Shown: positions 1,987-60,388, counted from the stretch's first letter. The stretch: DNA of 64,000 nucleotides from Anaerolineaceae bacterium (GCA_036744375.1 DAINSU010000003.1:7154-71153), one strand, 5' to 3'. The notes: generated from the letters alone by a model not told the origin. A program made the numbers and translations.

Positions 1987-2014
1987 TTGACTATAGGGTG
2001 CAGCGGGCTACAAT
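1987..2014 (+). promoter_or_regulatory. candidate sigma-70 type promoter for the protease gene
   Basis: ttgact (1987-1992), a 16-nt spacer, then tacaat (2009-2014), about 40 nt upstream of ATG 2053. Confidence 0.35.
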
Positions 2015-2052
2015 TATTAACATATTAGTTTTTCAAAGTGGTAAAGGTGGCT

Positions 2053-3237: not shown

Positions 3238-3258
3238 CTATAGATTTGTTAAATTAAT

Positions 3259-3298
3259 AAAGCGGCTGCTTTTATCAGGGCAGCCGCTTTATTTTTTC
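3259..3298. terminator. bidirectional rho-independent terminator between convergent genes
   Basis: An 11-bp stem aaagcggctgc/gcagccgcttt is followed by attttttcc on the + strand and by a T/A-rich run on the - strand. Confidence 0.7.
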
Positions 3299-3333
3299 CT
3301 AGTGATTACGTCTAACGCGGTCTAGTTGGGATC

Positions 3334-4566
3334 TTATTCGTAACGCAAGGCTTCCACGGGTTGGAGGTTCGCTGCTCGGCGGGCAGGGTACCAGCCAAAA
3401 AACACGCCAACAGCAGCTGAAAATAGGGTCGCGAGTAAGATTGAGCTGACACCGATGACTGGCGCAAGCGGTGCTCCCGAATTAGCCGCGATCAAACCAA
3501 CCAATGAAGAGAGCCCCCAGCCAAAAGCAATCCCAATCACCCCGCCAATTAGGCTCAGCATCGCTGATTCGGTCAAAAATTGCAGGAGGATATCAGACTT
3601 CCGTGCGCCTAATGCCTTCCGTAAGCCGATTTCGCGAGTGCGCTCCGTCACCGTAACAAGCATCATGTTCATAATTCCGATACCACCGACTAATAGTGAG
3701 ATCCCGCCGATCCCGCTTAGCATGATCGTTAAAATCTGAGTAATGCTATTGGCGATCGAAAGAAAATCTTCCTGATTAGTGATTGTAAAATCGTCAGGTT
3801 GCCGTGGCGTCAGGCGATGAGAAGAACGCATAATTTCGCGCGTCTCTTGGATCGCCAAAGTCATGCTCTGACTATCCTGCGCTTGCACGATGATATAGTC
3901 TACTTCTTCCGAGCCAGCACTAGACTTAACTCGCATCTGCATGGAAGAAATGGGCATATATATCATATAATCCGGCGAGCTAAACTGGTTGCCGCCCTTG
4001 GGCTTAGTCACCCCAACCACGCGGAAAGGATGTCCATTAATGCGCAGGACAGTTCCTACGACGCCAGTGGATTTGCCTGTCAGCCGTTCAGCTGCACGCG
4101 GGCCAATGACGATAACCGAAGCTCTAGCTGACTGCTGCGTTTCCGTAAAAAATGAACCTTCTTGGATTTCTAAGTTAAGGATTTGCTGAATATCCGGTGT
4201 GGAACCTGTCACATTGGTCGAAAGTGTATCATTTCCATAGGTAATCGTCGTCGAGCTGAAGAGCACAGGTGCAACACGAGCAATGTGCGGTGCCCTCGCA
4301 CGATTTGATAGGTTAGAGACATCGCTTAAGGTCAGTTTTTGCGGATTTGTAATATCTTCCATAATGTTGCCAGGCATCACGTAGAGAACATTCGTCCCAA
4401 TGGATTCAATTTGACCCGCAATGGAGGCTTGCGCTCCCTGCCCGATGGCAAGTAATGCAATCACCGCCCCCACGCCAATGATGATCCCCAAAATGGTTAA
4501 AAACGAGCGCATGCGGTTGGCAGCAATGCTAGTCCATGCTTCTTTGAGGACGTGCAAAAAGTTCAT
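3334..4566 (-). CDS. ABC transporter permease, MacB/FtsX type
   Basis: It has an N-terminal TM segment, a large periplasmic domain and the C-terminal FtsX-type motif [21 protein letters not shown]. Its start overlaps the stop of the upstream ATPase gene by 4 nt. Confidence 0.9.
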
Positions 4567-11591: not shown

Positions 11592-11668
11592 GGCAGCTCC
11601 TTGGGAAAGTTCGGACTTTAATATAAGTATACTTCAAGAAATACGCACCAACTTAAGCAAATTAGCGA

Positions 11669-12125
11669 TGTAAGAGCAACATGATAATGTCCTAAAGTGG
11701 CAAAATAAAAAAGTCTTAATTAAGAATAGGAGCAATATAATCGTTGTTCGATTACCCAGAGTATTTTCAAAGGAACATTAAAATCATGATGAACAGTGTA
11801 CGAGTAGCCTTTCCCCTCTTACTCCCCTTCCCAGCGAACTAATATTTATTAATTATCCTCATTAACTACCGCTGGGACGGGGAGTTGATGTTTGAAAGAG
11901 GGCTGCGCCCTCTTTCAAACTATTTTCCCTTCCCCAGCGGCTGAGCCGCGGAACAAAAAACCGCTTGCCGCTGGGGAAGGGTCAGGGTTAGGGTCACTGT
12001 AAAACATTATAGACAAGAAAAAATAAGATGGTTAGTTTTGAGAAAAAAACATACTAAAGGCTTTATCCACTTACTAGGACATTTTAAAATTGCCCGCATT
12101 AGAATATTTCTATTTAGCCTTGACA
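11669..12125. mobile_element. copy A of a ~0.4 kb TIR-bounded, hairpin-rich intergenic repeat (MITE-like)
   Basis: Both ends match copy B: tgtaagagcaa..ataatgtcctaaagtRgcaaaata on the left and ctttatccact..aggacattt..ttgccMgcatta..atttcta.ttagcc on the right. The ends are inverted relative to each other (aatgtcct / aggacatt). Confidence 0.65.
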
Positions 12126-12180
12126 CCCAGGCAACTTAGCGGCATTTTAGTTTTCATTTAACATTTCAATGTATTGGTAT

Positions 12181-12894
12181 TTAGGGGAGAAAAAAGTACT
12201 TTTCAAGCTGTAGGGCATTCAAAGAAGGTAAGACCTCTTCTGCTGCGGAGAAATCCTGATCAAGCGTCACAGGATTGGGAACTGCCACCGCACGAATGCC
12301 TGCCCTTTGGGCTGCCAAAATTCCGTTATAGGAGTCTTCCAGCACAAGCGCACGCCCAGCGAGAACAGTTAAGTTTTCTAATACTTTCAGGAAGATATCT
12401 GGTTCTGGCTTGCTCACTTGCACATCGTCAATGGTCACGATGGTATCAAACTGGCTCAAAAGGTTTAAGCGTTGCAGGTGACTATGCACCCAGTCCCGGG
12501 GAGAGCTGGAACCAACCCCTAAGGAAAGCCCTACCTTTTTCGCCTTAGCGATGAGCTCCACAACGCCAGGCAAAGCCGGCTCTTGGTTGATCACTTCAAT
12601 GCTCTTTGCTTGGACCAACTCCCATAACTCCTCGGGCGTGGTTCCATGATCGAGCAAGCGGGCAAGCTCCTCCGCTGGCTGGTAGATCTGCGAACCATAC
12701 GTCCCGATAATAGCTTGATAGCGTTTAATATCAAACTTGCCGCCTGCTTGGGCAAACAAGCGCTGCCAAATGCGCATCTCGGGCGTTTCGGTATCTAAGA
12801 TGAGCCCATCAAAATCAAAAATCAATGCGCCATTCACGAGTACTTCCCCTGAGAGTGTTTCAACAACGAAGATTTCGATTTCCCCAATAGCCAT
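12181..12894 (-). CDS. HAD-superfamily hydrolase (beta-phosphoglucomutase/phosphatase-like)
   Basis: HAD motifs I (FDFDGLILDTE), II (GVGSSS) and IV (LEDSYNGILAAQRAG) are present. The start is uncertain because the listed N-terminus overlaps the upstream gene by 35 nt. Confidence 0.85.
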   Translation of the reverse strand: MAIGEIEIFVVETLSGEVLVNGALIFDFDGLILDTETPEMRIWQRLFAQAGGKFDIKRYQAIIGTYGSQIYQPAEELARLLDHGTTPEELWELVQAKSIEVINQEPALPGVVELIAKAKKVGLSLGVGSSSPRDWVHSHLQRLNLLSQFDTIVTIDDVQVSKPEPDIFLKVLENLTVLAGRALVLEDSYNGILAAQRAGIRAVAVPNPVTLDQDFSAAEEVLPSLNALQLEKYFFLP

Positions 12895-19173: not shown

Positions 19174-19764
19174 TTACTGGGGGCTAAGATCTTCACCATC
19201 CCCCTGATCCTCTGTTGGATTAATATCTTCGTCCTCATCCTCGGATTTTTCCGGTTTTTGCTTGTTCAATTGATCAAAAAAATCCTCAAATACTGAGAGG
19301 TCGCCAGGCAGCTCTGCGCTTTCGCTGCCTTCATCCAACTCTTCGGAGGTTTCAGGTTCAGGTCGGATGCCGGCACGTTCCAACACATCTTCATCCACAA
19401 ATATTGGCACACCTGTGCGGACCACAAGGGCGATCGCATCCGATGGGCGGCAATCAATCCGTTTTTGGGCGCCATTCTGATCGATGATCAAGTTGGCGTA
19501 ATAGGTATCCGACTCCAAAGTAGTGATTTCTACTGAAATCAAACGGGCATCCAATGAGCTAATCAAATTCTTCATCAGGTCATGCGTCAATGGACGCGCC
19601 GTTTCGATCTTCTGCAAGGCAATCGTGATGGATTCGAACTCAAAGAGACCTATCCATATCGGCAGGTACAGCTCATCTTCTTTATCCTTCAGCACCACAA
19701 TGCGGTCTTGATTGATCAGGCTGACTCTTACACTGTTGATGACACACTCTCTCATTTTGCCCAT
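19174..19764 (-). CDS. bifunctional nuclease (BFN/DUF151) family protein with acidic tail
   Basis: Contains the DUF151 core LPIWIG..E..I...L......RPLTHDL and RPSDAIALAV-like CRPSDAIALVVRTGVPIF. The C-terminus is Asp/Glu-rich. Confidence 0.8.
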   Translation of the reverse strand: MGKMRECVINSVRVSLINQDRIVVLKDKEDELYLPIWIGLFEFESITIALQKIETARPLTHDLMKNLISSLDARLISVEITTLESDTYYANLIIDQNGAQKRIDCRPSDAIALVVRTGVPIFVDEDVLERAGIRPEPETSEELDEGSESAELPGDLSVFEDFFDQLNKQKPEKSEDEDEDINPTEDQGDGEDLSPQ

Positions 19765-19884
19765 ATTTACTCGCTTAACTTTAATGACAACTGAAATTAG
19801 AATTTGATTCTAACACGGCATTGAATACTGTAATCCTATTTTACCACCCTGTATTTCAGCGCCCTTCGGGAATAATGAGAAGGT

Positions 19885-20276
19885 TGTAAGAGCAAAGTTA
19901 TAATGTCCTAAAGTAGCAAAATAGTAATGTCCTGATTATCAATCTTTAAATCGCTTAGTTTATAACGATCTCAAGACATAATCGCAATCCCCACCCCTTT
20001 GATTCCCCTCCCCAGCGGCTGGTTTCAGATTTAACCTGACTGACCGACGCTGGTGAGGGGAAAAATGCTTGCAGGTGAGGGCATCCTGAGATTATTCACC
20101 TTTCAGAGGCTGGAGGTGATCCATGGACAAGCGTTTTTCAGCCTATTCATGCAACATAATTGACAAGAAGAGGATGAAGGTTAAATTTCCAAAGAAAACC
20201 CATACTGACAACTTTATCCACTGAACAGGACATTTCTAAATTGCCAGCATTAGGACATTTCTAATTAGCCATAACA
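19885..20276. mobile_element. copy B of the TIR-bounded intergenic repeat (MITE-like)
   Basis: It has the same termini as copy A, and here both aatgtcct (left) and aggacattt (right) are duplicated. The internal hairpin is cccctccccagcg...cgctggtgagggg. Confidence 0.65.
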
Positions 20277-20615
20277 GGATTAATGAGAATATAATAGTCG
20301 ATAAAGTAAGGTGAACCAATGGTTTCCTTACACTAATTTCTTGTGTTACAAACATACAGCATTCCAAAATGATGGAAAGTTCGGCTCGATTGTTAATGAC
20401 CAAAGATTAATTGTGAGATGGTGGTTTTTTTTACCCTTTTTCGTCTTGGCTTCAGTTTTTTTAAGCTATAATATGAGCGCAAGCTTAAACAAAGTTTTTC
20501 GTTTTGCTAACAGGGTTTTAATAGCTTGTTTCGCTAACTCAAGGCGCACTATTGTGTTTACCTTAAAATTGGTTTAGTCATCGACTTTACCGCACCAGCT
20601 CGTAAATGAGGTATT

Positions 20616-21284
20616 TTGTTAGCAAATAATCAAGTAAAAGTTTTATGCATTGAAGGTAAAAGAAATCATAATTATGCCTTCGCCGATGAACTCGCCAAGC
20701 GGGGTTATTGGGTGAAATCTGCCAAAAATGGGACTGCGGGCTTAAATTTACTTCTAGATTTCACCCCATCGATCGTTATCATTAACGCTGCCTCGTTGCG
20801 CACAGATGGCTCCCGCATTATCAAGCGCTTTCGCAATTGCTTGCCAAAATGCCCAATTGTTTTGATTGTCCCCGATCATGCTGATTTCGCTGAGAACCCC
20901 GAAGTTAACATTGTCCTCCAGCTGCCTTTCACCGTTCAAAAGCTGATCAACCGCATGCGTCTCTTTCAGCACAATAGTGAGGAAAATATCTGCACAGTTG
21001 GGCCATTGCAACTCAATACTGCTTCAAATTTAGTTACCTATAATGGTAAAGAAACTTCCCTCACACCTCGGCTCACGCAGCTCTTACTTGAGTTGATGAA
21101 AAAACCTGGTGAGGTAGTACCCCGGGGCATCCTTTTTCAGCGAGTGTGGGAAACCAATTATATCGGCGATACGCGCACTTTAGATGTGCACATCAGCTGG
21201 CTGCGGCGCGCACTCGAGGACGATCCACATCATCCGGCGTTGATCCGAACGGTGCGCTCTGTCGGCTATAAACTTGACTTGTAA
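20616..21284 (+). CDS. OmpR/PhoB-family winged-helix regulator with degenerate (Asp-less) receiver domain
   Basis: The C-terminus LTPRLTQLLLELMKKPGEVVPRGILFQRVW...RTLDVHISWLRRAL...IRTVRSVGYKL is a classic trans_reg_C domain. The receiver-like N-terminus has N57 where the phospho-Asp is expected. The start codon is TTG. Confidence 0.8.
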   Translation: MLANNQVKVLCIEGKRNHNYAFADELAKRGYWVKSAKNGTAGLNLLLDFTPSIVIINAASLRTDGSRIIKRFRNCLPKCPIVLIVPDHADFAENPEVNIVLQLPFTVQKLINRMRLFQHNSEENICTVGPLQLNTASNLVTYNGKETSLTPRLTQLLLELMKKPGEVVPRGILFQRVWETNYIGDTRTLDVHISWLRRALEDDPHHPALIRTVRSVGYKLDL

Positions 21285-34368: not shown

Positions 34369-35019
34369 ATGGCTATTATCACCATTTCTCGCGAGCTAGG
34401 CAGCGGCGGGGGCTTGATTACGCAAATGATTGTCAACACACTCAACTACCGCCAGGCAGATAAAGAGCTCATCGGAAAAATCATGCTCAAATATGGGGTG
34501 CTCACCTTCCACGAAGTTTATGACTCGGTGCATACACTTTGGTCGCGCTTAGATAGCCGTGACAAACTAGTCGTCAACTTACTCAACGAAACCATCAAAG
34601 CGTTTGCCAAACGGGATAACACGCTAATCATCGGTCGCGGTGGCTTTGTGGTACTCAAGGACTATCAAAATGTGCTCAATGTATTACTGCGCGCACCTTT
34701 CGAATATCGCGTGCGCAATGCCATGCAAACTGAGCAGATCAATGACATCCTTGAAGCCGAAAATGCTGTGCAGCAAAGCGATGAAGTGCGCCAGAGCTTT
34801 TTGCAAACTTTTTATAATGTTGATCCCAATGATGCACGAGGTTTCAACTTGGTGATCGATACCAGCCGTGTTCCGCTCAACCTTGCGGGTCGCTGGATCA
34901 TGGAAGGAGCTAAGGCGATCGATGCCCGCAGCATTAAACCGGAATTCAGCTCACTTCAAGCTGAGGTCGACCCCGTCTTGCTCAAGACGATTGAAGAAGT
35001 GCTGGCGGAACCTCAGTAA
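34369..35019 (+). CDS. cytidylate kinase-like family protein (P-loop)
   Basis: The N-terminus is ITISRELGSGGGLI, as in the Cytidylate_kin2-type family. The RBS is aaaggagg. Confidence 0.7.
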   Translation: MAIITISRELGSGGGLITQMIVNTLNYRQADKELIGKIMLKYGVLTFHEVYDSVHTLWSRLDSRDKLVVNLLNETIKAFAKRDNTLIIGRGGFVVLKDYQNVLNVLLRAPFEYRVRNAMQTEQINDILEAENAVQQSDEVRQSFLQTFYNVDPNDARGFNLVIDTSRVPLNLAGRWIMEGAKAIDARSIKPEFSSLQAEVDPVLLKTIEEVLAEPQ

Positions 35020-35053
35020 AAAAACCAATGCTGCTGGATAAGATTAGGGTTGT

Positions 35054-35878
35054 TTAGTAGTGGATGATCCAACGCATCAGAGCTCCAAAAGAAACCCCTA
35101 GAAGGATGCTGAGAAGCGTCCCCAAGATGAAGTATTCTGCGTTGGCGCGTTTTTCAAGCTGTTTGAAGCGCGCCAACGTTTTTAATGTTGCTAATAAAGC
35201 TAGCCCAGTATATATTCCCATTACCATTAATATTCCTATCAAAGCTCGCTCAACCCAGCCAATATAGAGACCAGTTTGTGGTTCTTTCTTTACCGGTGAT
35301 AGCGTTGTGGTATTTTCCGCAAGCGGTGATGCTTCCTTGGAAAGGTCGGCAATGTTTTCTTCAAAAGAACGCAATTGCAGCGTATTCATTATTACTTTAA
35401 TTAATTGCCCGCTGACCCAAATTAAATGCATCAAAACAATCCCTACCAGTATAATTTTGCTGCTCAGGCTGAGAGGTAGAGCTTTTTGACCAAATGCTAC
35501 TATATATGCTGGCAACGATTGGGCAGGCACAGCCAGCTGGAAAGCCCATAAGAAGACGTAGATAATTACAAAATGCAGCAGCTGATCCAGGATAAATTTT
35601 CCAATTTCATTCATCTTCCATAAGAACTTGAAACGGTCTATCAAGTAGTGGCAAACAAAAATACAGAGGGCAGCCAGCATTGTTTCAACTCGCAACTCGC
35701 CAAAAACAAGTAGTAGAAGGAATGTCGTGCCTAAATGAATCAAGCTGTGCCAAAAAATGCCTTTATTCCAGAAACGGCTCTTTTCGTGATTGATTTGCTT
35801 GAGTCTTATGAGATTATCCGGCTGGAAAAGAAAGTCCGCCAGGAGATGCGCCAAGACGAAAATCGCATAAATTCTCAT
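35054..35878 (-). CDS. DUF3307-like polytopic membrane protein
   Basis: The N-terminus contains HLLADFLFQ and a later HSLIHL..., the His-containing TM pattern typical of DUF3307. Its start overlaps the stop of the SatD-like gene by 4 nt. Confidence 0.6.
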   Translation of the reverse strand: MRIYAIFVLAHLLADFLFQPDNLIRLKQINHEKSRFWNKGIFWHSLIHLGTTFLLLLVFGELRVETMLAALCIFVCHYLIDRFKFLWKMNEIGKFILDQLLHFVIIYVFLWAFQLAVPAQSLPAYIVAFGQKALPLSLSSKIILVGIVLMHLIWVSGQLIKVIMNTLQLRSFEENIADLSKEASPLAENTTTLSPVKKEPQTGLYIGWVERALIGILMVMGIYTGLALLATLKTLARFKQLEKRANAEYFILGTLLSILLGVSFGALMRWIIHY

Positions 35879-36585
35879 GCTACATGTTCCTCGCTCAATA
35901 CTTCTATTAGGTAAATTAGGTTCTTTTCCGCTTCACGGATAAAATGGTAATCCGCACGCGCCAGTAGCTTGCTGAAATTTGCTGTGGCAAAAGCAGCAGG
36001 AACCTGGCTTTCATTCGTGGCGCTAACAGTCCAGTAGAGCTGGGCATTATTCCAATCTGGGTGTTCCTCGAGCAGTTGGATCGCTCGAGTTTGCTGTGGT
36101 GTTCGTGCTTCAATCCGCTGCATAATAAAATGTAAATAGGTCACTAGTGCCAAGTTAAGGTCGCGGTTGTTACTTGCATAGATGTTGTAATGAAAACGTG
36201 CTTTAGCAATAACTTTGAGTACTTCTGAATTGGGCTCCCGTTTGAGTTCCTCAAGGGCATCCGAGGCTCGCCAAATTGCCTCACCATTAATCCGTTCAGC
36301 TTCGGAGCGATTTTCACTCTCAATTCCCCCAATCCCTAAACCAACGTAAAATCGAAGCTGTGCAGCCTTGGCTTGAGAGTGCAAGCAACGGAAAGCCCGA
36401 TAGCCTGCCTGTATATTGCCATAGACAGCAAAAAGTTCATCTCCAGCTCGCAAAGTAAAGGGAATCAGCACGTCCTCCGAGGCTTTTTGGTTGAGCACCT
36501 CAACAGTGTCCGGTAGTTTTGAAGCTTCTCCCGTCTTTCGTGAGCCAACCAAGTCGGCCCGTATGCATACAAACGCTTGTGCCAC
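35875..36585 (-). CDS. SatD-like protein (hypothetical)
   Basis: The N-terminus has IRADLVGSRK and the protein is about 235 aa. I recall pairing with DUF3307 as the usual SatD context, but this was not verified by search. The start codon is GTG. Confidence 0.5.
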   Translation of the reverse strand: MAQAFVCIRADLVGSRKTGEASKLPDTVEVLNQKASEDVLIPFTLRAGDELFAVYGNIQAGYRAFRCLHSQAKAAQLRFYVGLGIGGIESENRSEAERINGEAIWRASDALEELKREPNSEVLKVIAKARFHYNIYASNNRDLNLALVTYLHFIMQRIEARTPQQTRAIQLLEEHPDWNNAQLYWTVSATNESQVPAAFATANFSKLLARADYHFIREAEKNLIYLIEVLSEEHVA

Positions 36586-38093: not shown

Positions 38094-38124
38094 GTCCTCT
38101 CCTTAATTGTGTATTAGATATTAT

Positions 38125-39786
38125 TCACAATAACATATCTGTAATTTTTCTTGTGACTCTGTCGACGATGCTGCCTACCTCAAATAAAGCATCAAAGGTA
38201 TCAAGGTCCTCATTTTCTGCCCGTTCATATTGAACAGCAAGCGCATATTCTACAACCGCAATTTCATAAGTTAATCCCCTAAATTCTTTTGAATCCAATA
38301 TCCCATTTGCATTATTTTTCGCCGCTACTATTTGAGGATGGTTGAGATTTATGTAGATAGTTCTTTCATCTTTCTTATATTCTGAGCGTTTGTCCTCTGG
38401 AGAACCTTCAATGTATGATACTGAAAACACTCCTCTTTTCACTTTTCTTTGGGAGTCCGTTTGTCCCATCTCTTTCGGAGATCCATGATGATCGCCTGGG
38501 ATTAAATTTGGCCCTAATTCACGGGGTGTTTCTCCTTCGCCAGGCGGTAAAATGCCTTCACTTTTTCCATCTCCTCTTTCATAACCTGCTGGAGAGAAAA
38601 GAGATATCAGATCACCTTCGCCGGGCAAGATTTGTCCTTTGTCACTCGTTATTTCTTGAAGTTTTCGTACTTGCGTGGATGTAATCTTTCTCGCTAATTC
38701 ATACTGTTCTAAAATACCAACGAAATCTGCATTTAATATATTCTCAAGCTCTTTTGAGCTTTGTTGTAATTTTTTATATTGCTCTGATTTTTTTCTTTCC
38801 TCTTCCTGTTTAACAATTTCTTTCCTTACTTCCTCTACATGTTGACCAATCCAAGCCAAAAGTATAACAACAGTCGGATTTGCGCGATTTAGCTGGTTAT
38901 TACGCGTATTATCAAAAGGTGGTATGGAGGAATTATCGTCCTCAAGTTTTTCTATGTCTACTTCACCAAAAATCCTGTTTGAGTATTCCTTGTTTTCCGA
39001 TTCGGCTAAAGTTGTTTCATGCCATATGCCATAGGATAATATGTCTACCCCGACAAATTCCGCGTCCAGAGGCTTCGGAGAGACTTTTATAATCAGATCA
39101 ATTGACCCGAGTTTCTCTTTTAGTTCTAAGGTTTCCGGACTGAATTTATAGATATTGGTATAAGCTGGTTCTGTAAATTTACAAGTATGACCATTTATTA
39201 TTACTGTCGCTTTTTGTTTATATCTACTTAAATTTCTTTCAATAAACAGAATGGTTCTTTCAAAATTAATTTTGCCATCAATAAAATCTGAGATAAATAC
39301 TTTAGTCCCATCTTGGCTGTTATCATCACTGATTTTTTCATTATCTACTAAAATTTCAACTGGGAAGGAGCTGCCATCGATAGCACTTTCTATCATTTTT
39401 CTTGTCAATTTAACATTATTTCTAAATCCATTCTTAATAGTATCAATTTCTAATGCATTAGCAATTCCAAAAGCAGCAGATTTCCCGGTTCCAAAACGTC
39501 CTCTGACTCTTTTGCCTTTTTTCCTTTGAACATTTTCCCCATGCATTTGGAAAAAGCGGATTAAGTCATCCTTAGACATACCTACTCCATTATCTGCAAT
39601 AACAAGTTTTTTTGGAGCCGAAGGGAATAAATCTACATTTACTGTAATGGGAATATCTTCTTTGGCATTATCTAAAGAATTAGATACATATTCCCAAACA
39701 ACTTTAGGTAAGGTATTAAAATAGGCTGAGTTTTGAAGAAAATCACGAGCTACATGGCTTGAAACTAAAATATCACGATTCGACAT
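38125..39786 (-). CDS. MORC-like GHKL (Bergerat-fold, HATPase_c_3-type) ATPase with coiled coil and C-terminal domain
   Basis: N-box EYVSNSLDNA, G1 box DNGVGM and G2 box GRFGTGKSAAFG are present. ATG 39786 is preceded by aagaaggagaagg, and the track start at 39807 is TTG. The gene lies in the AT-rich island. Confidence 0.8.
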   Translation of the reverse strand: MSNRDILVSSHVARDFLQNSAYFNTLPKVVWEYVSNSLDNAKEDIPITVNVDLFPSAPKKLVIADNGVGMSKDDLIRFFQMHGENVQRKKGKRVRGRFGTGKSAAFGIANALEIDTIKNGFRNNVKLTRKMIESAIDGSSFPVEILVDNEKISDDNSQDGTKVFISDFIDGKINFERTILFIERNLSRYKQKATVIINGHTCKFTEPAYTNIYKFSPETLELKEKLGSIDLIIKVSPKPLDAEFVGVDILSYGIWHETTLAESENKEYSNRIFGEVDIEKLEDDNSSIPPFDNTRNNQLNRANPTVVILLAWIGQHVEEVRKEIVKQEEERKKSEQYKKLQQSSKELENILNADFVGILEQYELARKITSTQVRKLQEITSDKGQILPGEGDLISLFSPAGYERGDGKSEGILPPGEGETPRELGPNLIPGDHHGSPKEMGQTDSQRKVKRGVFSVSYIEGSPEDKRSEYKKDERTIYINLNHPQIVAAKNNANGILDSKEFRGLTYEIAVVEYALAVQYERAENEDLDTFDALFEVGSIVDRVTRKITDMLL

Positions 39787-40378
39787 CCTTCTCCTTCTTA
39801 ACAACAAATTTTTCTTGAAGAAATTGCCAACAAGATTCTAATTTTTCATCATCTCTAACTACATTACTAATTAGAGCGTATCGTCTCTGAAGAGCATGAG
39901 CTGGAAAGTATTCATTAACTCGGGCAAAATCTTGAAAATCTCCAAAGGTAATATTTTCACTTTCACCTGAAATATACTTTATGTAAGCTGTGCTGGAAGC
40001 TAATCTATTTTTTTCTAAAATTAATTTTTCCGCAATAGATCTATTTCTATAAGAAGAGCTTTTTATTGATTCCGATGTTGTTGCGAGAGATTTCACCAAG
40101 GAAAAACCATCTGCAGTTAGCATGAAACCGTGACTATAATTTCCTGAGACTAATGAAGGACCCCTTTTTGGTTTCATTGCATCTTTGATTGCATAGGTTA
40201 CAACTCGTAAGTCTATTTTATCTTTATACTTTCTCCAGCTGAACTTTTCTGGCGCGTATTCATATACTTTTATTGCAATATCTTCAATGTCAATCGAATT
40301 CGTTTCTCCACCCAGGTCAAAAATGGCTAAAAGGACAATCTGAACATTTGATAATTCATTAGTCTTTTGGTTAATCAT
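39773..40378 (-). CDS. hypothetical 201-aa protein (middle gene of the AT-rich island)
   Basis: It is coupled to both neighbours: an ATGATTAA overlap upstream and a 14-nt overlap downstream. I can name no motif, and the wHTH-like N-terminus is only a guess. Confidence 0.6.
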   Translation of the reverse strand: MINQKTNELSNVQIVLLAIFDLGGETNSIDIEDIAIKVYEYAPEKFSWRKYKDKIDLRVVTYAIKDAMKPKRGPSLVSGNYSHGFMLTADGFSLVKSLATTSESIKSSSYRNRSIAEKLILEKNRLASSTAYIKYISGESENITFGDFQDFARVNEYFPAHALQRRYALISNVVRDDEKLESCWQFLQEKFVVKKEKDVES

Positions 40379-42521
40379 TGATTTTTCTCACGATTATCTT
40401 GGGAGATTCCCTAGAATCAAATGTTAATTGAATTCTATCGCCAATTGTCACATTTAGAGCATTAAATGCCTTTCCCAATCCCCAAATTAAAGATTCATCT
40501 CGTTGAGCTATTCCTTTTTGTAATCCATCAACATATACAGGCCAACCGTTATCCAGACTTGGCAATTGTTGGCAGGAACGCGAAACACTAATTACTCCTC
40601 CTCTAGCCCATGAATTAACATTTAATTCATATTTGATGGTGCCATCAATACTATATGTAACTTTTGCATCTTTTGAATATAACTCTTGTCGTTGTTTTGC
40701 TGCTTCTAATTCTTGAATAGAAAAATTTTTTCCTCTTAAAATATAAAACCCTGTATCAACTCTTTCGACTATTGGAGACATGCCCATGATTCTGACTACG
40801 GCCGTAGAAGCTGAATATCCTTCCTTCAAATATCGGTCAATAATTTCTTGAAAGGAAATAACTGGTCCTTTTTCTTTAATTAATTCTAAAAATATTTTTT
40901 CACTTCCAGTTAGATTTCCTTTTAAATGACCATCATAATAAACAATATCATGTTGTATTGAAAATCCTAGTAATTGAAGAAAATACAACATTACCGAGTT
41001 TGGAGATATTACGTATTTATTTCTAGAAATATATCGCCTGATCCCGTCGCAAAAAGTCTCGAATTTTAACTCTCCACATGCATTAATCATCGATAATCCT
41101 GCGTTTAAGATCGGATTTCGAGAATTAATTAATATAACGCTTTTTAAGCTAAACCAATTGTCAATTATTTCTTTATAACCCAAGGAGTTTAATAGATCTG
41201 CAGTGGATTCAGGATCAATGCCAACTATTTCTGATGCTTGCGAAATGTGAATTCCTCCTGTAAAGTTTACAATCCGTTGAATTTTCTTTTTTTGTATGGT
41301 AGTCAGATCTGATAAAGCTTTTAGATTTTTTAGCTTTTCTTCAGAATTTATAATTTGTTTTACATTTCGTGGGATTGAAACATGAGCAGGTAATGAGGCA
41401 GAATCTTTTATCAACGCGCATAATATATCAAATGCATCATTTTCACCAAGCACAATATTTCCTGAAACAATTTTTTTATCTAGTAATGTGGAACGCCAAA
41501 CAGTTTTACTTAAATCTTCTCCCATTTCCTCTGCAAATAAAAAGGAGGACTGAAGAAATATCATAGGTAAATTATTCATATTGTTCGATAATTTGTTATT
41601 TGTAAGGTTTAATATTTGGCGCACTCGTTCTCGAGTAATTCCAAAGTATTCGCCTATCTGTTGGTAAGTGTAATTCTTAACATTTCGTAAAATGTATATC
41701 TCAATATATCTGTCTGAACAACATGAAAAAACTTGTTTCAATTCCTCATCAAGGTTTTTTTGTTCAGTAAATTTAATAAATTGTTCTATAAATCTATATA
41801 TATCTGCATCGTTCATAGATCGAGCTTCAAAAAGTTTCTTCAGGCTTGTTCCCGCGATCCCCGCTTTAGAATGTATAGACCCATTTTGAACACAAGATTG
41901 TAGATACTCAATACATGCATCAAATATCCGCAGATTAATATTTTCGTCCTCGGAAAAGAAATAGATAAGGTCTGAAAGAAATGAGAATAAATCATCTATT
42001 GATTTTATGCAGATTGATTCAAGCCTGTCTACTGTCCCCTTTGGCAATTGATTTTTAAAGATAAAGATTGGAATATTTTTTATAAAATCTGGCAAAGATT
42101 CTTGTAATTGTTTACTTTCTGCGAATTCTTCTAAAGTATTAATTCCAATTGTTTTATTATTCTGTTCTATTGAAGATTTAGTTTCTATAGATGGAGAATG
42201 TCCTTTAATATATAAATCCGTTTTTTCTATAATTATTCGAACTGAATCTCTACCAATATAACGAATATTTCCTAGCTGATCGTTATTAATAAGATTAACA
42301 ACTTCATAAACACTATTTACACCAACTCTTTTTAAACCATTAAAACATCTTTTTGGTAAATCTAGTAGTTCAATCGGGACATTTTTTAACACTTCAATAT
42401 AGTTAGGGGGTAATTTCTCCATTTCATTATTCGATTGATATAATTTTCCTTGGTAGTAATCACCTTTGAATTCGTGTTGAGTAGAATTTTTATCTTTATT
42501 CATAATTCCTAGATATAACAT
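40371..42521 (-). CDS. hypothetical 716-aa protein with RpoA alpha-CTD-like HhH and sigma-70 region-4-like HTH
   Basis: IELLDLPKRCFNGLKRVGVNSVYEVVNL fits the alpha-CTD HhH pattern, and SDRYIEIYILRNVKNYTYQQIGEYFGITRERVRQILNLTNNKL fits sigma region 4. ATG 42503, preceded by aggaa, is a likely alternative start. Confidence 0.7.
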   Translation of the reverse strand: MLYLGIMNKDKNSTQHEFKGDYYQGKLYQSNNEMEKLPPNYIEVLKNVPIELLDLPKRCFNGLKRVGVNSVYEVVNLINNDQLGNIRYIGRDSVRIIIEKTDLYIKGHSPSIETKSSIEQNNKTIGINTLEEFAESKQLQESLPDFIKNIPIFIFKNQLPKGTVDRLESICIKSIDDLFSFLSDLIYFFSEDENINLRIFDACIEYLQSCVQNGSIHSKAGIAGTSLKKLFEARSMNDADIYRFIEQFIKFTEQKNLDEELKQVFSCCSDRYIEIYILRNVKNYTYQQIGEYFGITRERVRQILNLTNNKLSNNMNNLPMIFLQSSFLFAEEMGEDLSKTVWRSTLLDKKIVSGNIVLGENDAFDILCALIKDSASLPAHVSIPRNVKQIINSEEKLKNLKALSDLTTIQKKKIQRIVNFTGGIHISQASEIVGIDPESTADLLNSLGYKEIIDNWFSLKSVILINSRNPILNAGLSMINACGELKFETFCDGIRRYISRNKYVISPNSVMLYFLQLLGFSIQHDIVYYDGHLKGNLTGSEKIFLELIKEKGPVISFQEIIDRYLKEGYSASTAVVRIMGMSPIVERVDTGFYILRGKNFSIQELEAAKQRQELYSKDAKVTYSIDGTIKYELNVNSWARGGVISVSRSCQQLPSLDNGWPVYVDGLQKGIAQRDESLIWGLGKAFNALNVTIGDRIQLTFDSRESPKIIVRKIND

Positions 42522-42651
42522 TCATCGAGTTACTATATATTTACCTATGTTACATAAATTTTTCCCCAGTTCAAATGTATATTTTATCCTTTGGAGTTTT
42601 GTTTATCAAGGTCTGATTGATAAAGAGATAAGTTTTCCTTCCGCTTCCTTA

Positions 42652-42660
42652 TGCTATAAT
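42652..42660 (+). promoter_or_regulatory. extended -10 element (TGcTATAAT) of the candidate secA promoter
   Basis: tgctataat lies at 42652-42660, about 65 nt upstream of the secA ATG. The -35 is weak. Confidence 0.45.
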
Positions 42661-42725
42661 ACCCACTAGCTGCCAAACCGGCTTGCGCCAGATTTGGCAG
42701 AATTTGTGAAGGAAATACCTTAAGC

Positions 42726-45700
42726 ATGTTCAAAAAAATTAGCAACATTTTCGCGGGAGACTCGCAAAAACGCAGGCTCGATAAGCTGGTCACCGTGGTC
42801 GATCAAATCAACGCACTCGAGCCAACCTTCGAGGCGCTCTCCAATGACGCCCTGCGCGCCAAGACGGACGAATTCCGCCAGCGCCTCAGCCAAGGCGAAA
42901 CACTCGATGACCTGCTGCCCGAGGCTTTCGCTGCCGTGCGCGAAGCCAGCAAGCGCACGCTCGGCTTGCGCCACTACGACGTGCAGCTCATCTGCGGCAT
43001 CAACCTGCACCAGGGCAACATCTCCGAGCTGCGCACGGGCGAAGGCAAGACCTTAGCCGCCACCCTGCCGCTCTACCTCAACGCGCTGGAGGGCAAGGGC
43101 GCGCACCTCGTGACGGTCAACGACTACCTCGCCCGCCGTGACGCGCGCTGGATGGGACCCATCTACGACCTGTTGGGGCTCAAGGTGGGCGTGCTGCAAA
43201 TGTCCACCAGCGCCGATGGCAATCAAGTGGCTTACATCTACGATCCCGAAGAGCACTCGCTGCGGGAGGAGACCAACCTGCTGCGCCCAGTGCGTCGCGC
43301 GGAGGCTTACCTCGCCGATATCACCTACGGCACCAACTCTGAATTTGGTTTCGACTACCTGCGCGATAACATCACTATGAGATGGGAGAGCCGTGTGCAG
43401 CGCGGTCATCACTATGCCATTGTGGATGAGGTGGATAACATTCTCATCGATGAAGCCCGCACCCCGCTGATTATCTCCGGCCCTTCGCATGAGGACGCAG
43501 AATATTACATCCGCATGGCACAAATTGCCAAAGCGCTCAACCCTGAGGATTACGAGGTCGATGAGAAAGACCGCACCGTCAGCCTGACGGAAATCGGGGT
43601 GGCACACGTGGAGGAAATGCTGGGCATGCCACTCTCGGATCCAGAGCGCCCGGAGGATATCACCCCGGAGCAAGCTCACCTCTTAGGCTTTTTGGAGCAG
43701 AGCTTGCGCGCGCAATTCCTCTTCCACCGCAATAAAGATTACATCGTACAAAACGGTCAGGTGATCATCGTAGACGAATTTACCGGCCGTATGATGCCCG
43801 GCAGGCGCTGGTCCGATGGCTTGCATCAAGCCATTGAAGCCAAAGAAGGCGTCAAGGTGCAAGCTGAGAACGTCACGCAAGCTACCATCACCATCCAAAA
43901 CTACTTCCGCATGTACAAGAAGTTAGCTGGTATGACCGGTACGGCTATGACCGAGCAGGAGGAGTTCTACCGCATCTACGGGTTGGATGTCCTCGCAATC
44001 CCGACTAACCTCGAATACCGCGCGATGCGCCCCAATTCGGACTTGTTGGAGTTGGAGGCAAAGGACGAGGATGGCTACAAATATAGCTATTACGCCTATA
44101 CCTCCGACCCGGAGAAGAAGCCAGTTTATTTCAAGCGTAAAGATTTCCCGGATGTGGTTTACCGCACAGCCGAGGGTAAGCTCCGCGCGATTGTGCAGGA
44201 AATCATCCACTATCATGTCATCGGCAGGCCACAATTGATCGGCAGCGCCTCGGTGGAAAGCTCTGAGCGTCTTTCGGAGCGCCTCTCCGCCGAGCAAGTG
44301 CGCCGCTTGTTGCAAACTCTGCTCATCCGTGAAGCTTGGAAAATCGAGAATGACCCCAAGGGCGAAAACTTTACCGCCCCGCCGGAATTGGAGATGCTCA
44401 ATCAGCCGCTCAACGCGCTGCGTATGCCTGAACTGCGCAAGCTGGCGAGCAATTACGGCATCACCACGCTTGACCTAAGCGACGAAAGCAACCGACCATT
44501 ATTGCTGCGCGCGCTCAAATTAGAAGAGAAAGATTGGCCGCGTTTGCAGGCGCTATTCGACGCCGGCATTCCCCATCAAGTTTTGAATGCGCGCAAGCAC
44601 ACCGAAGAGTCCATCATTATCGCTGGCGCTGGTGCTTACGGCGCTGTAACCATAGCGACCAACATGGCAGGCCGTGGTGTGGATATCAAACTTGGCGGCG
44701 AGATCCCCGAGAGCCTGCTCGCAGAAGTTAATCAGGTCTTAACCACCGTTGCCGAGGTGGACCCGTACAACATGACCATGGAACAGCGCTTAGCTGCTTT
44801 ACAAAACCTGAACTCTAAGCTGGATGAGGAACAGCAAGCTGCGGTTACTGAATTTATCGAGCATATGAACAACATGCAGAAAGTGCGTGAACTGGGCGGC
44901 TTGCACGTGATCGGCTCGGAGCGGCACGAAGCCCGCCGCATCGATAACCAGCTGCGCGGCCGGGCTGCCCGCCAAGGTGACCCAGGCTCCTCACGGTTCT
45001 ACCTCTCCTTAGAGGATGACCTGATGCGCTTGTTTGGCGGAGATCAAGTGCAGGGGCTGCTCAATCGCTTCAAGTTTGATGAAAATATGCCCATCGAAGC
45101 CAATTTGATCGGCAGGCTCGTGGAGCAATCGCAAACCCGCGTAGAAGGCGCCAACTTTGATGTGCGCAAGCACTTGCTGGAATACGATGACGTGCTCAAC
45201 GACCAACGCCAACGCATTTATGCCCAGCGCGATGCGATCTTCAAAAAAGCCGATTTGCGCGAAGACGTAACCGAAATGTTACGCACGGAAATCAGCCAGC
45301 GCGTCCAAAACGCCATGGAAGACCCGGAAGGACCCTGGAAACTGTTAGCCTACTTAGAGGAAATTCAGCCCGCAATTGATACGCCTTGGGCAAGTTACCC
45401 TTCTTTCCCCTTCCGCTTAGCACTCGATCAACTCGGCACCCCTGCGGATGAGGATGAACTGGCAGCAGCATTGCTCAAGTTAGCAGAGGATGCCCTCTCG
45501 GCTGAGGATGCGCACATGCTGGAAAGCGTGCATGCCTTACTGGATAGAACCGAACAAAGCCTCAAAGCCCAATTAGCTGAGCGTAATGATATCTTAGATA
45601 CCTACTTAGATAGCTTAGATCCGCAAGATCGGCATGATTTGCAAAATGAACTCTCCTCCATCTTGGGTATACCTATGCGGCTGTCTGCTTCTCAGCAGAG

Positions 45701-46751
45701 AGCGCTGCTGGAGGACCCACGCGGGCAAAAGCCTTGGCTGCAAGATTCCTTACGGACGAACCTTACCACGCTGCATTTACGCCGTTTATTGCTGACGCTC
45801 GAGCGCCGCTTCAACGAATCCTGGCCGCTCAAAGCAGCTGACCTCGCCTCCCAACCTTGGAAAGAAATCCATTCCCAGGTCTTAGAGCAGATCCAAGGCA
45901 CAATGGAGCGCCGTAAGCAGCGCCTGCTTGGCACTGATGGCGATATCGCACGTGATTTGGCAGCCAACGAAGAGCACCTGACTGCGGCGCTCACCGATGA
46001 AAACGAGCGTTTACGCCTCGTGCAGCTCACTACCCAAGGCGTTCGCATCACCTTTGACCCCAAGTCTCACCGTAGGCAGCTGACCACTGCGCCACGCCTG
46101 ACGTATGTTTTTTCCATGGCGCAGCAGCTCGAAGCGCTGCCTGCTCAGCAGATAACGGAGCAAATTTTAGCCCATCTTGAAGAAGCTCAGGCGGTATTCC
46201 AGACCATCTTTGGGCATGCAGAGTGGGAACACTTGCGCAACCAAGAGGTAACGCTTGACAAATTAGCTCCAAATTCTAAAGATATCTTGGCAGAAGCGGT
46301 CGGTAAGGAGCACTTTGAGCTGCTTGAAAGTTTGCCATTGGATGAAATTTCTTCTGAAGATCAGGAGCCCTTAGTTCAAGCACTAGGCGAGCTTGCCCAA
46401 AACCGCATCTACCGCCAGCTGCTTTTAGCGACCATTACCCAAAGTTGGGTCGAATACCTCACCCGCATGGAAGCCTTACGTGTCTCCATCAGCATGGAAT
46501 CCTATGCCCAGCGTGATCCATTAGTACAGTATAAGTCCCAAGCCAGCACAATGTTCACAGAGCTGCTCTCCGAAGTGCGCCAAACGGTCATCAGCAAAAT
46601 GTACCGTTTCCGCCCTTCACTGCCGGCAGAATACACCACCGGCTTGCGCAGCGCCGCCAGCCCTCAGTTAGAGCCGGCTTTAGTTGGTGCAAACGAAGCT
46701 CGTCTGAATGACCCGCCAGCCAAATCAAAGAAAAAGCGTAAACGCCATTAG
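42726..46751 (+). CDS. secA: preprotein translocase ATPase SecA (unusually long, 1341 aa)
   Basis: Contains [51 protein letters not shown] and [31 protein letters not shown]. Large insertions are present, and there is no C-terminal Cys zinc finger. Confidence 0.97.
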
Positions 46752-59076: not shown

Positions 59077-60111
59077 TTAAAATTGTTCCAAGAAGCGTAT
59101 GTCATTATTGCGAAAGTGGCGGATATCATCCACGCGGTAGCGCATGAGCGTCGAACGGTCGATGCCCATACCAGCGGCAAACCCCGAAAATTCCTGCGGA
59201 TCATAACCGCCATATTCAAGCACCGTAGGGTGCACCATACCACAGCCGAGGATCTCCAACCATCCGGTACCTTTGCACACATTGCACCCCTCTCCTCCGC
59301 ACACAAAGCACTCCACGTCCATCTCCGCACTGGGCTCAGTAAAAGGGAAATATGAGGGGCGCAAACGCGTGCGGGCATCTTTGCCAAAAGCGCGGGCTGC
59401 AAAGTCAATCAGCGTGCCTTTCATATCTGCAAAAGTAATGCCCTTGCCGACTACCAGCACTTCCACTTGAATGAACTCGATCTCCGAGCGGGCAGTCAGC
59501 TGCTCATAGCGCATGGTCGTACCAGGCAAGATAGCGCGAATATGTTCGGGCGCGCGCTCGCGCATAATGTGAATCTGCCCAGGAGAAGTGTGCGTGCGCA
59601 AGAGCACGCCATCTTTATCGGTGTAAAAAGTGTCCCACATGTCACGGGCAGGGTGGTAAGGCGGTATATTGAGGTAAGTGAAGTTAAAGTCATCCGTTTC
59701 CACTTCTGGGGAGCGGTAGATCTGAAAGCCCATATCGCGGAAAATCTGGCAGACCTCGCGCAAGGTTTGGTTGAGCGGATGCAGGCGACCGCGCTGCACG
59801 GCTCTGCCAGGCAGGGTTACATCAATACGTTCACTAGCTAAAACGCGCTCCAGTTCTGCCTGCCTTAGCTGCTCGCTTTTGACTGCATAAGCGCTCTCCA
59901 GCGCTTGCTTGACGGCATTCGCAGCCCGCCCAACCAGCGGACGTTCTTCCGCAGGCAGCTTACCCAAATCGGAGAAGGCTTGCATCACTGGTGAGGATTT
60001 ACCTAAATGCGCAACGCGCCAGGCTTCTAACGCTTCAGTGCTCACAACCTCTTCCAATGCGGTAAGTGCTGCTATTTTTTCTTGTTCCAGCTGTGCTTCT
60101 CTATCTGTCAT
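59077..60111 (-). CDS. pheS: phenylalanine--tRNA ligase alpha subunit
   Basis: Class II motifs are present: HPARDMWDTFY, FRPSYFPFTEPS and GFAAGMGIDR. Confidence 0.96.
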   Translation of the reverse strand: MTDREAQLEQEKIAALTALEEVVSTEALEAWRVAHLGKSSPVMQAFSDLGKLPAEERPLVGRAANAVKQALESAYAVKSEQLRQAELERVLASERIDVTLPGRAVQRGRLHPLNQTLREVCQIFRDMGFQIYRSPEVETDDFNFTYLNIPPYHPARDMWDTFYTDKDGVLLRTHTSPGQIHIMRERAPEHIRAILPGTTMRYEQLTARSEIEFIQVEVLVVGKGITFADMKGTLIDFAARAFGKDARTRLRPSYFPFTEPSAEMDVECFVCGGEGCNVCKGTGWLEILGCGMVHPTVLEYGGYDPQEFSGFAAGMGIDRSTLMRYRVDDIRHFRNNDIRFLEQF

Positions 60112-60145: not shown

Positions 60146-60382
60146 TAAAAAAACCCGTCCGTTCAAGGGACGGGCAAGTCTGCCGTGGTACCACCCTTGT
60201 TGGCTGCTTGTGCAACCCACTCAAGGTATTCTATAACGGGAAACCCCGGTGCGGACTACTAGCGCTTCACCCGCACAACTCCCGAGGGAACTTCCTCCAG
60301 CGTTTACCTGGCACTGCTTTCAGTCTGGGGCAGCGCCTCCCTGATGGGTCCCGCTGAGTTACTTTCCTCGTTCACCGTTGAT
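60146..60382 (-). promoter_or_regulatory. T-box riboswitch leader of pheST (with intrinsic terminator)
   Basis: The minus strand contains caaGGGTGGTACCACGg, the T-box sequence (60181-60203). It is followed by the terminator cccgtcc-cttgaac-ggacggg plus ttttttt (60146-60176). A UUC codon sits in the candidate specifier region (60288-60290). Confidence 0.75.
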
Positions 60383-60388
60383 AGCGTA

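Follow-up and report, generated by a model that had tools for sequence, protein, structure and literature searches.

In a 64,000-nucleotide (nt) stretch of the genome of an Anaerolineaceae bacterium (GCA_036744375.1 DAINSU010000003.1:7154-71153; this whole stretch is called the window, and positions count from its first letter), an AT-rich island between kamA and secA carries three genes on one strand, which we call A, B and C. The island is a horizontally transferred, self-contained three-gene operon, and the trio is almost certainly a mobile functional unit. The combined explanation that we favour, with a probability of roughly 45%, is that the trio is an undescribed system of conflict with foreign DNA, centred on a MORC-like ATPase and lacking any recognisable nuclease. 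Taken part by part, a conflict role of some kind is somewhat probable, and a nuclease-free clamp or silencing mechanism is doubtful. An earlier note on this DNA had put the island forward as a candidate undescribed defence or regulatory system; composition, synteny and the want of a match to a known system all support that candidacy, with defence as the role that we infer. The note had also named three outcomes that would speak against its proposal; in our analysis of the trio the compositional difference held, the genes proved syntenic elsewhere, and no described system fitted them.

Until now, the GHKL/MORC-type ATPases of prokaryotic conflict systems were known in the company of nucleases, helicases or methylases; here such an ATPase is accompanied only by putative DNA-binding proteins, in a compact operon of 4.4 kilobases (kb), and its carriers are found only in uncultured lineages, to which experimental defence screens have not extended. 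If the trio is a defence system, it would represent a new type of system with two new protein families (A and B) and perhaps a non-degradative mechanism, and the cassette may bear on the origin of non-cutting DNA silencing by eukaryotic MORCs.

The island, its operon and its recurrence across phyla

The island and the genes within it are laid out as follows (aa, amino acids).

38105..42641, no strand: strain-specific AT-rich island of 4.54 kb between kamA and the secA leader, from homology breaks and composition
40371..42521, minus strand: gene A, 716 aa, multi-domain protein of predicted nucleic-acid-binding folds
39773..40378, minus strand: gene B, 201 aa, unannotated family, coupled to A and C
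38125..39786, minus strand: gene C, 553 aa, GHKL ATPase of MORC/paraMORC type
42581..42609, minus strand: candidate sigma-70-type promoter TTGATA-17-TAAAAT, from a consensus scan (10/12 matches), about 60 nt upstream of the A ATG

Evidence for a unit comes first from its recurrence. A profile of C was scanned against one genome per species (185,579 species), giving 102 confirmed places, of which 80 were kept, all in metagenome-assembled genomes (MAGs). The carriers are spread very patchily over more than ten phyla, and among them are Chloroflexota, Poribacteria, Acidobacteriota, Verrucomicrobiota, Planctomycetota, Actinomycetota, Bacillota, Myxococcota and Burkholderiales. When family hidden Markov models for A, B and C were run on 84 non-redundant loci, all three genes were present in 66, in the order A-B-C at 42 and B-C-A at 24, the latter order marking a clade whose C is 35-39% identical; most of the other loci are truncated at contig edges. 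A-B-C was also the order in each of five independent contexts of C or A homologues, and B lies directly upstream of C wherever B was seen. The genes are also tightly packed, with gaps within 30 nt from B to C in 74/77 loci, from A to B in 38/39 and from C to A in 20/24. No shared fourth gene or effector emerged from clustering of 556 neighbour open reading frames (ORFs) or from a Pfam scan of the 147 nearest neighbours. This linkage outlasts a change of gene order across phyla, and is therefore strong evidence that the three products work together.

The unit also appears foreign to its hosts. In this window, the AT-rich composition claimed by the earlier note is borne out by computation: the G+C content of the island (4537 nt) is 0.330, against 0.503 in the remaining window (z = -8.2), and the lowest value for any other 4.5-kb stretch is 0.454. 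Along sliding windows, G+C runs at 0.27-0.39 over 38250-42750 and at 0.52-0.63 in the flanks. Tetranucleotide usage stands about three times further from the window average than that of any other stretch, with an L1 distance of 0.62 for the island versus 0.154 +/- 0.021 elsewhere (maximum 0.222). Across the family, the trio falls below its flanks in G+C at 70/77 loci, by a mean of 6.8 points (-6.8), and the flanking genes differ in nearly every lineage; recurring synteny of neighbours is lineage-specific only, and involves fumarase, solute-binding and metallophosphatase genes.

The borders of the island were drawn from DNA homology with two sister contigs, L097 and L099, which ends at about 42633-42642 and restarts at about 38104-38112. 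Its flanking genes are, as had been recognised before, kamA (Radical_SAM + LAM_C, of the lysine-2,3-aminomutase-type radical-SAM kind) and secA. In line with the earlier description, scans with Pfam, PADLOC and NCBIfam found no integrase, transposase, methyltransferase or nuclease domain in the island proteins, and no convincing terminal direct or inverted repeats or target duplication were seen at the borders. Sister contigs whose kamA is 95% and SecA 94-98% identical lack the trio at the same secA-kamA slot. In L097 (SecA 98%, kamA 95% identical), positions 1993-4372 hold instead a type II restriction-modification (R-M) pair with a G+C of 0.32, plus a PD40 protein; the pair consists of an N6_N4 methylase (PADLOC MTase_II, E 1e-227) and a TdeIII-type endonuclease (E 2e-87), and begins at the same secA-side breakpoint as the trio. 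The cargo of L099 is an FGE-sulfatase-domain protein, and that of the more distant L101 (kamA 80% identical) an M23 peptidase. A clean, empty secA-kamA junction was not found among these sister strains, which hold other cargo. As the cargo differs from strain to strain, the slot is a variable integration hotspot, with the trio and the R-M pair as alternative cargo.

The long ORFs of the island number exactly three, share the minus strand and are tightly coupled; the ORF scan returned the lengths given previously (716, 201 and 553 aa), and the remaining ORFs are short, on the opposite strand and only 89 and 92 aa long. Both coupled junctions described in the earlier note can be read directly: the stop of A and the start of B overlap at 40371-40378 in aatcaATGATTAAcc (ATGATTAA), and the start of C sits 14 nt inside B, seen in aagaaggagaaggATG, behind aagaaggagaagg. 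An alternative start for C, TTG at 39807, would give 560 aa, and the true start of A may be the ATG at 42503, because M7 is nearly invariant in the A family. Promoter-like sites in the island region do not exceed shuffled expectation in number, and the operon promoter listed above is a candidate only. From the stop codon of C to the ATG of kamA, on the same strand, there are 31 nt, with no terminator-like site on the operon strand between them. Homology between strains starts only 11-19 nt upstream of the kamA ATG (window 38094-38124; L097, L099 and L101), which leaves kamA without a conserved promoter to itself; judging by this arrangement, it is probably transcribed by read-through from whichever cargo lies upstream.

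Predicted folds of the three proteins

Protein A combines a domain like the C-terminal domain of the RNA polymerase alpha subunit (alpha-CTD), which is a helix-hairpin-helix (HhH), with a helix-turn-helix (HTH) like region 4 of sigma-70. Its domains, with template modelling (TM) scores where available, are these.

42198..42428, minus strand: A residues 32-108, RNA polymerase alpha-CTD-like HhH, from Pfam, the PDB profile and Foldseek (TM 0.76-0.81)
A residues 129-212: second helical HhH-like domain, from the AlphaFold2 model
41574..41843, minus strand: A residues 227-316, sigma-70 region-4-like HTH with recognition helix ITRERVRQI, from PF04545 and PDB SigA
40737..41300, minus strand: A residues 408-595, three tandem winged helices, from model secondary structure and Foldseek
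40380..40664, minus strand: A residues 620-714, C-terminal B3-like beta-barrel (DNA-binding pseudobarrel), from Foldseek

The pairing of the first and third of these, already proposed from the sequence, holds in Pfam, which matches RNA_pol_A_CTD (PF03118) at residues 46-100 (E 1.8e-8) and Sigma70_r4 (PF04545) at residues 277-311 (E 6e-8); no Sigma70_r2 match was found in Pfam at E <= 1. A family profile compared with PDB sequences likewise reached the Bacillus subtilis alpha-CTD (E 6.6e-11) and SigA region 4 (E 1.8e-9). An AlphaFold2 model built from 95 family sequences has a predicted local distance difference test (pLDDT) of 90.5 and a predicted TM score (pTM) of 0.74. Foldseek against the PDB gave matches at the level of domains only, sigma-A region 4 among them. 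The winged-helix array resembles the C-terminal fragment of SelB (1lva and 2pjp), UFL1/DDRGK1 (8b9x) and ESCRT-II, and the barrel resembles the plant B3 domains of VRN1 (4i1k), FUS3 (6j9b) and VAL1 (6j9a and 5yzy), with a probability of 0.99-1.00 and a TM of 0.45-0.54 on target. No enzyme appeared among the Foldseek matches of A in the PDB, and no viral structural relatives at E <= 0.001. The recognition helix ITRERVRQI aligns with VTRERIRQI, the -35-reading helix of Thermus (Taq) SigA, and R297, E298, R299, R301 and Q302 are at least 90% conserved across 95 family members, in an alignment with a mean of 19% identity per column; indeed, this helix is the best-conserved part of the family. The alpha-CTD keeps equivalents of the DNA contacts R265, N268, G296 and S299 (E. 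coli numbering). All recognisable modules of A are, as modelled, nucleic-acid-binding folds, and A presumably binds DNA; as a mosaic of promoter-reading modules of RNA polymerase, the protein is unprecedented.

The A family is small and fast-evolving; in a set of 1.84 billion representatives it accounts for 194 clusters (50% identity, E <= 1e-30). Its members vary N-terminally, with one to seven alpha-CTD repeats, PC4 domains or a B3-like NgoFVII_C; in one relative (L064), the B3-like match, to Pfam RE_NgoFVII_C, does not coincide with the place of the C-terminal barrel. One relative has a C-terminal DUF4268, an accessory domain of the GmrSD type IV restriction enzymes (PMC4619093). Unusual architectures are seen in P0195 (1895 aa), P0183/L066 (1313-1340 aa), P0265 (1059 aa), P0210 (1089 aa) and P0162 (834 aa), and include an A-like N-terminal 610 aa joined to about 1300 aa without a Pfam match, six or seven tandem alpha-CTD repeats, two PC4 single-stranded-DNA-binding domains, and the C-terminal DUF4268. 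At one locus (L009, 4997-7272), A appears split or decayed: a called gene of 516 aa is parted by a small ORF on the opposite strand from a fragment that matches the C-terminal part. The locus adjoins PIN and integrase-core (rve) fragments, and may be a degenerating copy.

In protein C, the following parts can be told apart.

39382..39708, minus strand: C residues 27-135, Bergerat-fold ATP-binding core, from PF13589 and invariant motifs
38674..38877, minus strand: C residues 304-371, a single 68-residue helix forming a coiled-coil-like arm, from DSSP on the AlphaFold2 model
38131..38655, minus strand: C residues 378-552, C-terminal beta + helical domain, from the model, with N480, H483, P484, Q485, E508 and E521 invariant

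The full set of Bergerat/GHKL motifs with a coiled coil, as claimed earlier, is upheld: Pfam places HATPase_c_3 (PF13589) at residues 27-135 (E 1.5e-18), motifs I-IV (E32/N36/D39, D65/G69, G96/G99/T100/G101 and G160/T161) are invariant in 36 homologues, and the long helix is present in the model. More than 120 full-length homologues share 46-97% identity. The AlphaFold2 model (pLDDT 76.6) runs from the GHKL domain through a transducer-like domain and the long helix to the C-terminal beta + helical domain, for which no Pfam or PDB sequence match was found. Its best structural matches in the PDB are MORC2 bound to DNA (9cdj and 9cdh), MORC3 (6o1e), MORC4 (7k7t) and Hsp90. For MORC2/3/4, Foldseek gives E 6e-12 to 1e-10 and a TM of 0.49-0.58 on target, at a root-mean-square deviation of about 6 Å and 12-16% identity; the alignment, of some 370-400 columns, reaches beyond the GHKL core, Hsp90 middle domains match too, and there is no sequence-level S5 match. 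All 50 structural matches listed are MORC or Hsp90-family (Hsp90/TRAP1/HtpG) chains, with Hsp90 equally significant. As modelled, C is thus an intact GHKL ATPase of MORC-like fold, and the 'MORC-like' label of the earlier note holds as a resemblance at fold level that is common to Hsp90. A phage protein family of unknown function, phrog_6203, matches C residues 5-348 (the GHKL and transducer part) at E 5e-20. Related paraMORC-like ATPases are therefore encoded by some phages, although the trio itself was not found in phage genomes.

Protein B remains without a motif to name, just as first reported, with no match in Pfam, NCBIfam, PHROGs or the PDB. PADLOC gave one non-significant match, to AbiEi (E 0.039), its family profile reached only a non-significant 8b3s among PDB sequences (E 0.008), and no consistent weak Pfam signal was found among 23 family members. 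Of the 24 homologues found, 23 were aligned, with 22 invariant positions. The sequence pattern of B suggests a possible N-terminal winged helix. Over the three proteins together, the profile searches of PDB sequences led to nothing but GHKL, alpha-CTD and sigma region 4. Kinship of B with part of A was considered and rejected (hhalign probability 0.1%). One called protein (P0013, 343 aa, from ENA) consists of 74% of B (94% identical) followed by a GHKL N-terminus; a natural fusion is less likely here than a frameshift or an error of gene calling where B and C overlap.

Known systems, a proposed mechanism and its rivals

The earlier note did not recognise the trio as a named system, and neither do we. 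Scans of all three proteins with Pfam, NCBIfam, PADLOC and PHROGs gave matches to generic domains only. PADLOC-DB v2.0.0 (2023) contains no match for A and none of significance for B, and C meets only the GHKL part of the generic REase_II model (E 1.2e-7). The nearest named system is mzaABCDE, an anti-phage system (Gao et al. 2020) of which an E. coli homologue has been tested (bioRxiv 10.1101/2022.06.16.496414). Like the trio, it is mobile and accessory, and it unites in one operon a sigma-70 region-4 HTH protein (MzaA), a MutL/MORC-type GHKL ATPase (MzaB) and a third member without an assigned function (MzaC). However, Mza needs MzaD (Z1 domain), for which nuclease activity was shown in the same preprint, and MzaE (AIPR), whereas the island holds three genes only and neither of these; for the 147 genes nearest to the trio at 79 loci, the list of the 25 commonest Pfam families includes neither Z1 nor AIPR. 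The proteins differ too: A carries region 4 in mid-protein, along with an alpha-CTD, three winged helices and a B3-like barrel, whereas the NCBIfam model of MzaA has region 4 at its C-terminus (positions 639-693 of 726). As MzaA (NF041931), A scores 19.7 bits against a cut-off of 800 (E 3e-4, over the region-4 HTH at residues 253-303 only); as MzaB (NF041932), C scores 14.0 bits against 850 (E 0.012), and 12.4 bits (E 0.009) with the PADLOC MzaB model.

Other GHKL systems share a module with C and part ways from it elsewhere. Residues 25-211 match the N-terminal GHKL module of the BbrUII/HgiDII restriction enzymes (NCBIfam E 3e-18), and the same type of module is found in the GHKL-Shedu protein VcSduA, in which a GHKL ATPase controls anti-phage activity (PMC12137116). 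Yet in both of these the GHKL part is fused to a nuclease, whereas C has no nuclease domain, and as a BbrUII/HgiDII enzyme (NF050001) C was rejected at 65.6 bits against a cut-off of 550, the match covering only model positions 20-212 of 659. The prokaryotic MORC and paraMORC1-5 GHKL genes, known from R-M contexts (Iyer, Abhiman & Aravind 2008, PMC2292703), resemble C in build, with an N-terminal GHKL domain with intact motifs and a family-specific C-terminal extension, and they too are patchy and laterally mobile; between these parts they have an S5-type transducer, where the model of C has a transducer-like domain. What defines those families, however, is the genes to which they are linked: superfamily-II helicases, DNA methylases, and proteins with restriction-fold, HNH or TIR domains (PMC2292703). 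No such helicase, nuclease or methylase accompanies the trio: no helicase or nuclease family recurs among the 147 nearest neighbours, and the three N6_N4 methylases there are fused to ParB. The same paper makes no mention of sigma or RNA polymerase. A further paper, on a two-component paraMORC system (PMC8011034), concerns other domains, PF19191 and PF19192. These are not among the Pfam matches of A, B or C.

Eukaryotic MORC2/3/4 are the best structural matches to C, over some 395 aligned columns that take in the GHKL domain, the transducer and the coiled-coil insertion; they differ in that C has no CW or chromatin-reader domains, and targeting would here fall to the separate proteins A and B. 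In function, the trio as we picture it would have an analogue in the xenogeneic silencers. H-NS, Lsr2, MvaT and Rok are nuclease-free, recognise AT-rich foreign DNA via the minor groove and shut it down. This is a functional analogy only, as the silencers have no sequence or fold relation to the trio and are small, abundant, ATP-independent core-genome proteins. In full-text searches of the literature, we found no paper that pairs RNA_pol_A_CTD with HATPase_c_3. The cassette is undescribed and brings two new families of proteins, A and B; it would belong with the conflict systems based on GHKL/MORC.

How might such a trio act? In the conflict reading that we favour, A would be a multivalent DNA-binding subunit that chooses the DNA, plausibly promoter-like or AT-rich foreign DNA, a target suggested because the modules of A are RNA-polymerase-like; in hosts at 50-70% G+C, such DNA would be mostly foreign. 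B, translationally coupled to C, would bridge or regulate, and C would be a dimeric GHKL-transducer-coiled-coil ATPase that, on binding ATP, closes round or compacts the bound DNA and keeps it from being transcribed or replicated, much as MORCs act on chromatin in eukaryotes. GHKL ATPases dimerise N-terminally on ATP binding, and with a C-terminal hold this makes a clamp. MORC2 is described as an ATP-dependent machine that clamps and compacts DNA, and so silences transposons and viral DNA while leaving them uncut (PMC12216690). It is because of this clamp behaviour and this compaction that we propose C as an ATP-driven DNA clamp recruited by A (with B); in this picture the proteins would form a complex, C would clamp or compact DNA, and the trio would serve in defence. 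A more far-reaching form of the idea, which we consider rather unlikely, is a new, non-cutting class of immunity or silencing in which A either finds promoter-like or AT-rich foreign DNA or is set off by phage proteins that take over RNA polymerase, and then loads a MORC-like, ATP-driven clamp that compacts and silences that DNA. If true, bacteria would have a counterpart, perhaps even a precursor, of the MORC-mediated silencing of transposons and viruses in eukaryotes.

Several observations weigh against a conflict system. No effector (nuclease, NADase, pore or protease) was found in A, B or C; the C-terminal domain of C and all of B could hide one, and the lack is either the most interesting feature of the cassette or a gap in detection. 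The trio has no match in GenBank phages or among IMG/VR contigs, a plasmid search gave one weak Rhizobium match at 26% identity, and neither an integrase nor terminal repeats flank the island. Its replacement by an R-M pair in the secA-kamA slot is a single case, and every carrier is uncultured. Within A, the equivalent of the K298 DNA contact of the alpha-CTD is D in the present copy, and K in the family consensus. The earlier note had suggested looking for the trio next to other defence genes in unrelated genomes; of this, the synteny of the trio was borne out, and company of that kind was seen for a minority only. The 147 nearest neighbours, from 79 loci, are mostly housekeeping genes, because of which there is no clear defence-island enrichment; conflict-type genes form a minority (PIN 7, MazE 3, DDE transposase 4, ParB-methylase 3), with HigB/HTH_3 and SocA_Panacea beside the trio in individual loci.

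An alternative that we regard as unlikely makes A a decoy of RNA polymerase, or guard: a phage takeover protein binding to A, and not the recognition of DNA, would activate C via B and so arrest the cell or the phage DNA. A would display copies of sigma region 4 and the alpha-CTD, the two RNA-polymerase modules that are the commonest targets of phage takeover proteins (T4 AsiA; T4 Alt/ModA). The region-4.2 helix of A, with its T-R-E-R-V-R-Q, matches primary sigma factors and is the part best kept in a family of otherwise 19% average identity, and the alpha-CTD-like domain is repeated one to seven times in relatives, as bait domains would be; A has no sigma region 2, and hence no role as a sigma factor. 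Yet the domains gained in relatives of A (PC4, B3-like and DUF4268) are DNA-binding and not RNA-polymerase-like, the three winged helices and the B3-like barrel would be without a role in a pure decoy, and there is no known phage partner. Were A such a decoy of RNA-polymerase modules, it would be a clear bacterial case of guarding the transcription machinery.

Equally unlikely is a regulatory or nucleoid module of the host with no role in conflict, in which A competes with or supplements RNA polymerase at promoters, C remodels DNA topology or compaction, and host genes including the downstream kamA are regulated. Sigma region-4 and alpha-CTD folds are promoter-recognition modules, the operon ends just before kamA with no terminator-like site between, and the neighbours in other genomes are mostly housekeeping genes, all as this explanation would have it. 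It sits poorly, however, with a very patchy distribution across phyla, a G+C consistently under that of the host, presence or absence at the level of strains with unrelated cargo in the same slot, and flanking genes that change in almost all lineages, which is unlike a housekeeping regulator.

Or could the trio be selfish, an addiction or maintenance cassette kept because its loss harms the cell, or an aid to some unrecognised mobile element, with no protection of the host? Its low G+C and sharp borders, its PIN/MazE, HigB and transposase neighbours, and its trading of places with an R-M system, itself an addictive element, are what one would expect. Even so, we hold this to be very unlikely: the cassette has no integrase, transposase or repeat borders of its own, it was not found on phages and on plasmids has only one weak match, and 1470 aa in three well-conserved proteins are far above the need of known addiction modules.

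Two narrower roles were also considered and rejected. As a sigma factor, A has no region 2, its match to TIGR02937 covers only positions 87-164 of 165 (40.2 bits against a cut-off of 42.9), and in the model the HhH-type helical domains occupy the space before region 4, the region-4 HTH itself being present; without region 2, A therefore cannot act as one. As a partner switch of the SpoIIAB/RsbW type, the trio does not fit, C being a 553-aa protein with a transducer-like part, a long helix and a C-terminal domain and not a kinase of about 150 aa, and no STAS or other Pfam match was found in B and its 22 aligned relatives. That the trio is a diverged named system (MzaABC of mzaABCDE, a GHKL-fused restriction enzyme, or a SpoIIAA/AB/sigma-F-like anti-sigma switch) is largely refuted and highly improbable: the weak NCBIfam matches to MzaA, MzaB and BbrUII/HgiDII and the set of sigma-like, small and GHKL proteins, which recalls Mza and the spoIIA operon, are outweighed by bit scores far under the cut-offs, by PADLOC models that fit MzaB only at E 0.009 and A not at all, and by a trio with no sigma region 2 in A, no STAS in B, and a C that folds like MORC/Hsp90.

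Other features of the window

Elsewhere in the window, milder patches of low G+C (0.40-0.43, against 0.50) lie at 19501-21000, 11501-12500 and 35001-36000, and the patch at 19.5-21 kb contains 850 nt without an ORF of at least 150 aa. The sole Rfam match in the window is a T-box leader on the minus strand at 60163-60384 (RF00230, 103.4 bits, E 1e-21), upstream of a 344-aa ORF at 59077..60111; no tRNA genes were found in the 64 kb.

The 5' leader of secA holds a hairpin at 42671-42700, 26-55 nt upstream of the secA ATG, that reads CTGCCAAA-TCTGGCGCAAGCCGG-TTTGGCAG. In L097, at 1822-1851, the loop between the inverted arms of 8 nt is flipped, its central 15 nt being exactly inverted (CCGGCTTGCGCCAGA), and the hairpin of L099 has the L097 orientation, with substitutions. 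The SecA protein itself (42726-46751, plus strand) is 1341 aa long, the same length as in the sister strains L099 and L100. A typical bacterial SecA has about 900 aa, and this one must therefore carry large insertions or an extension.

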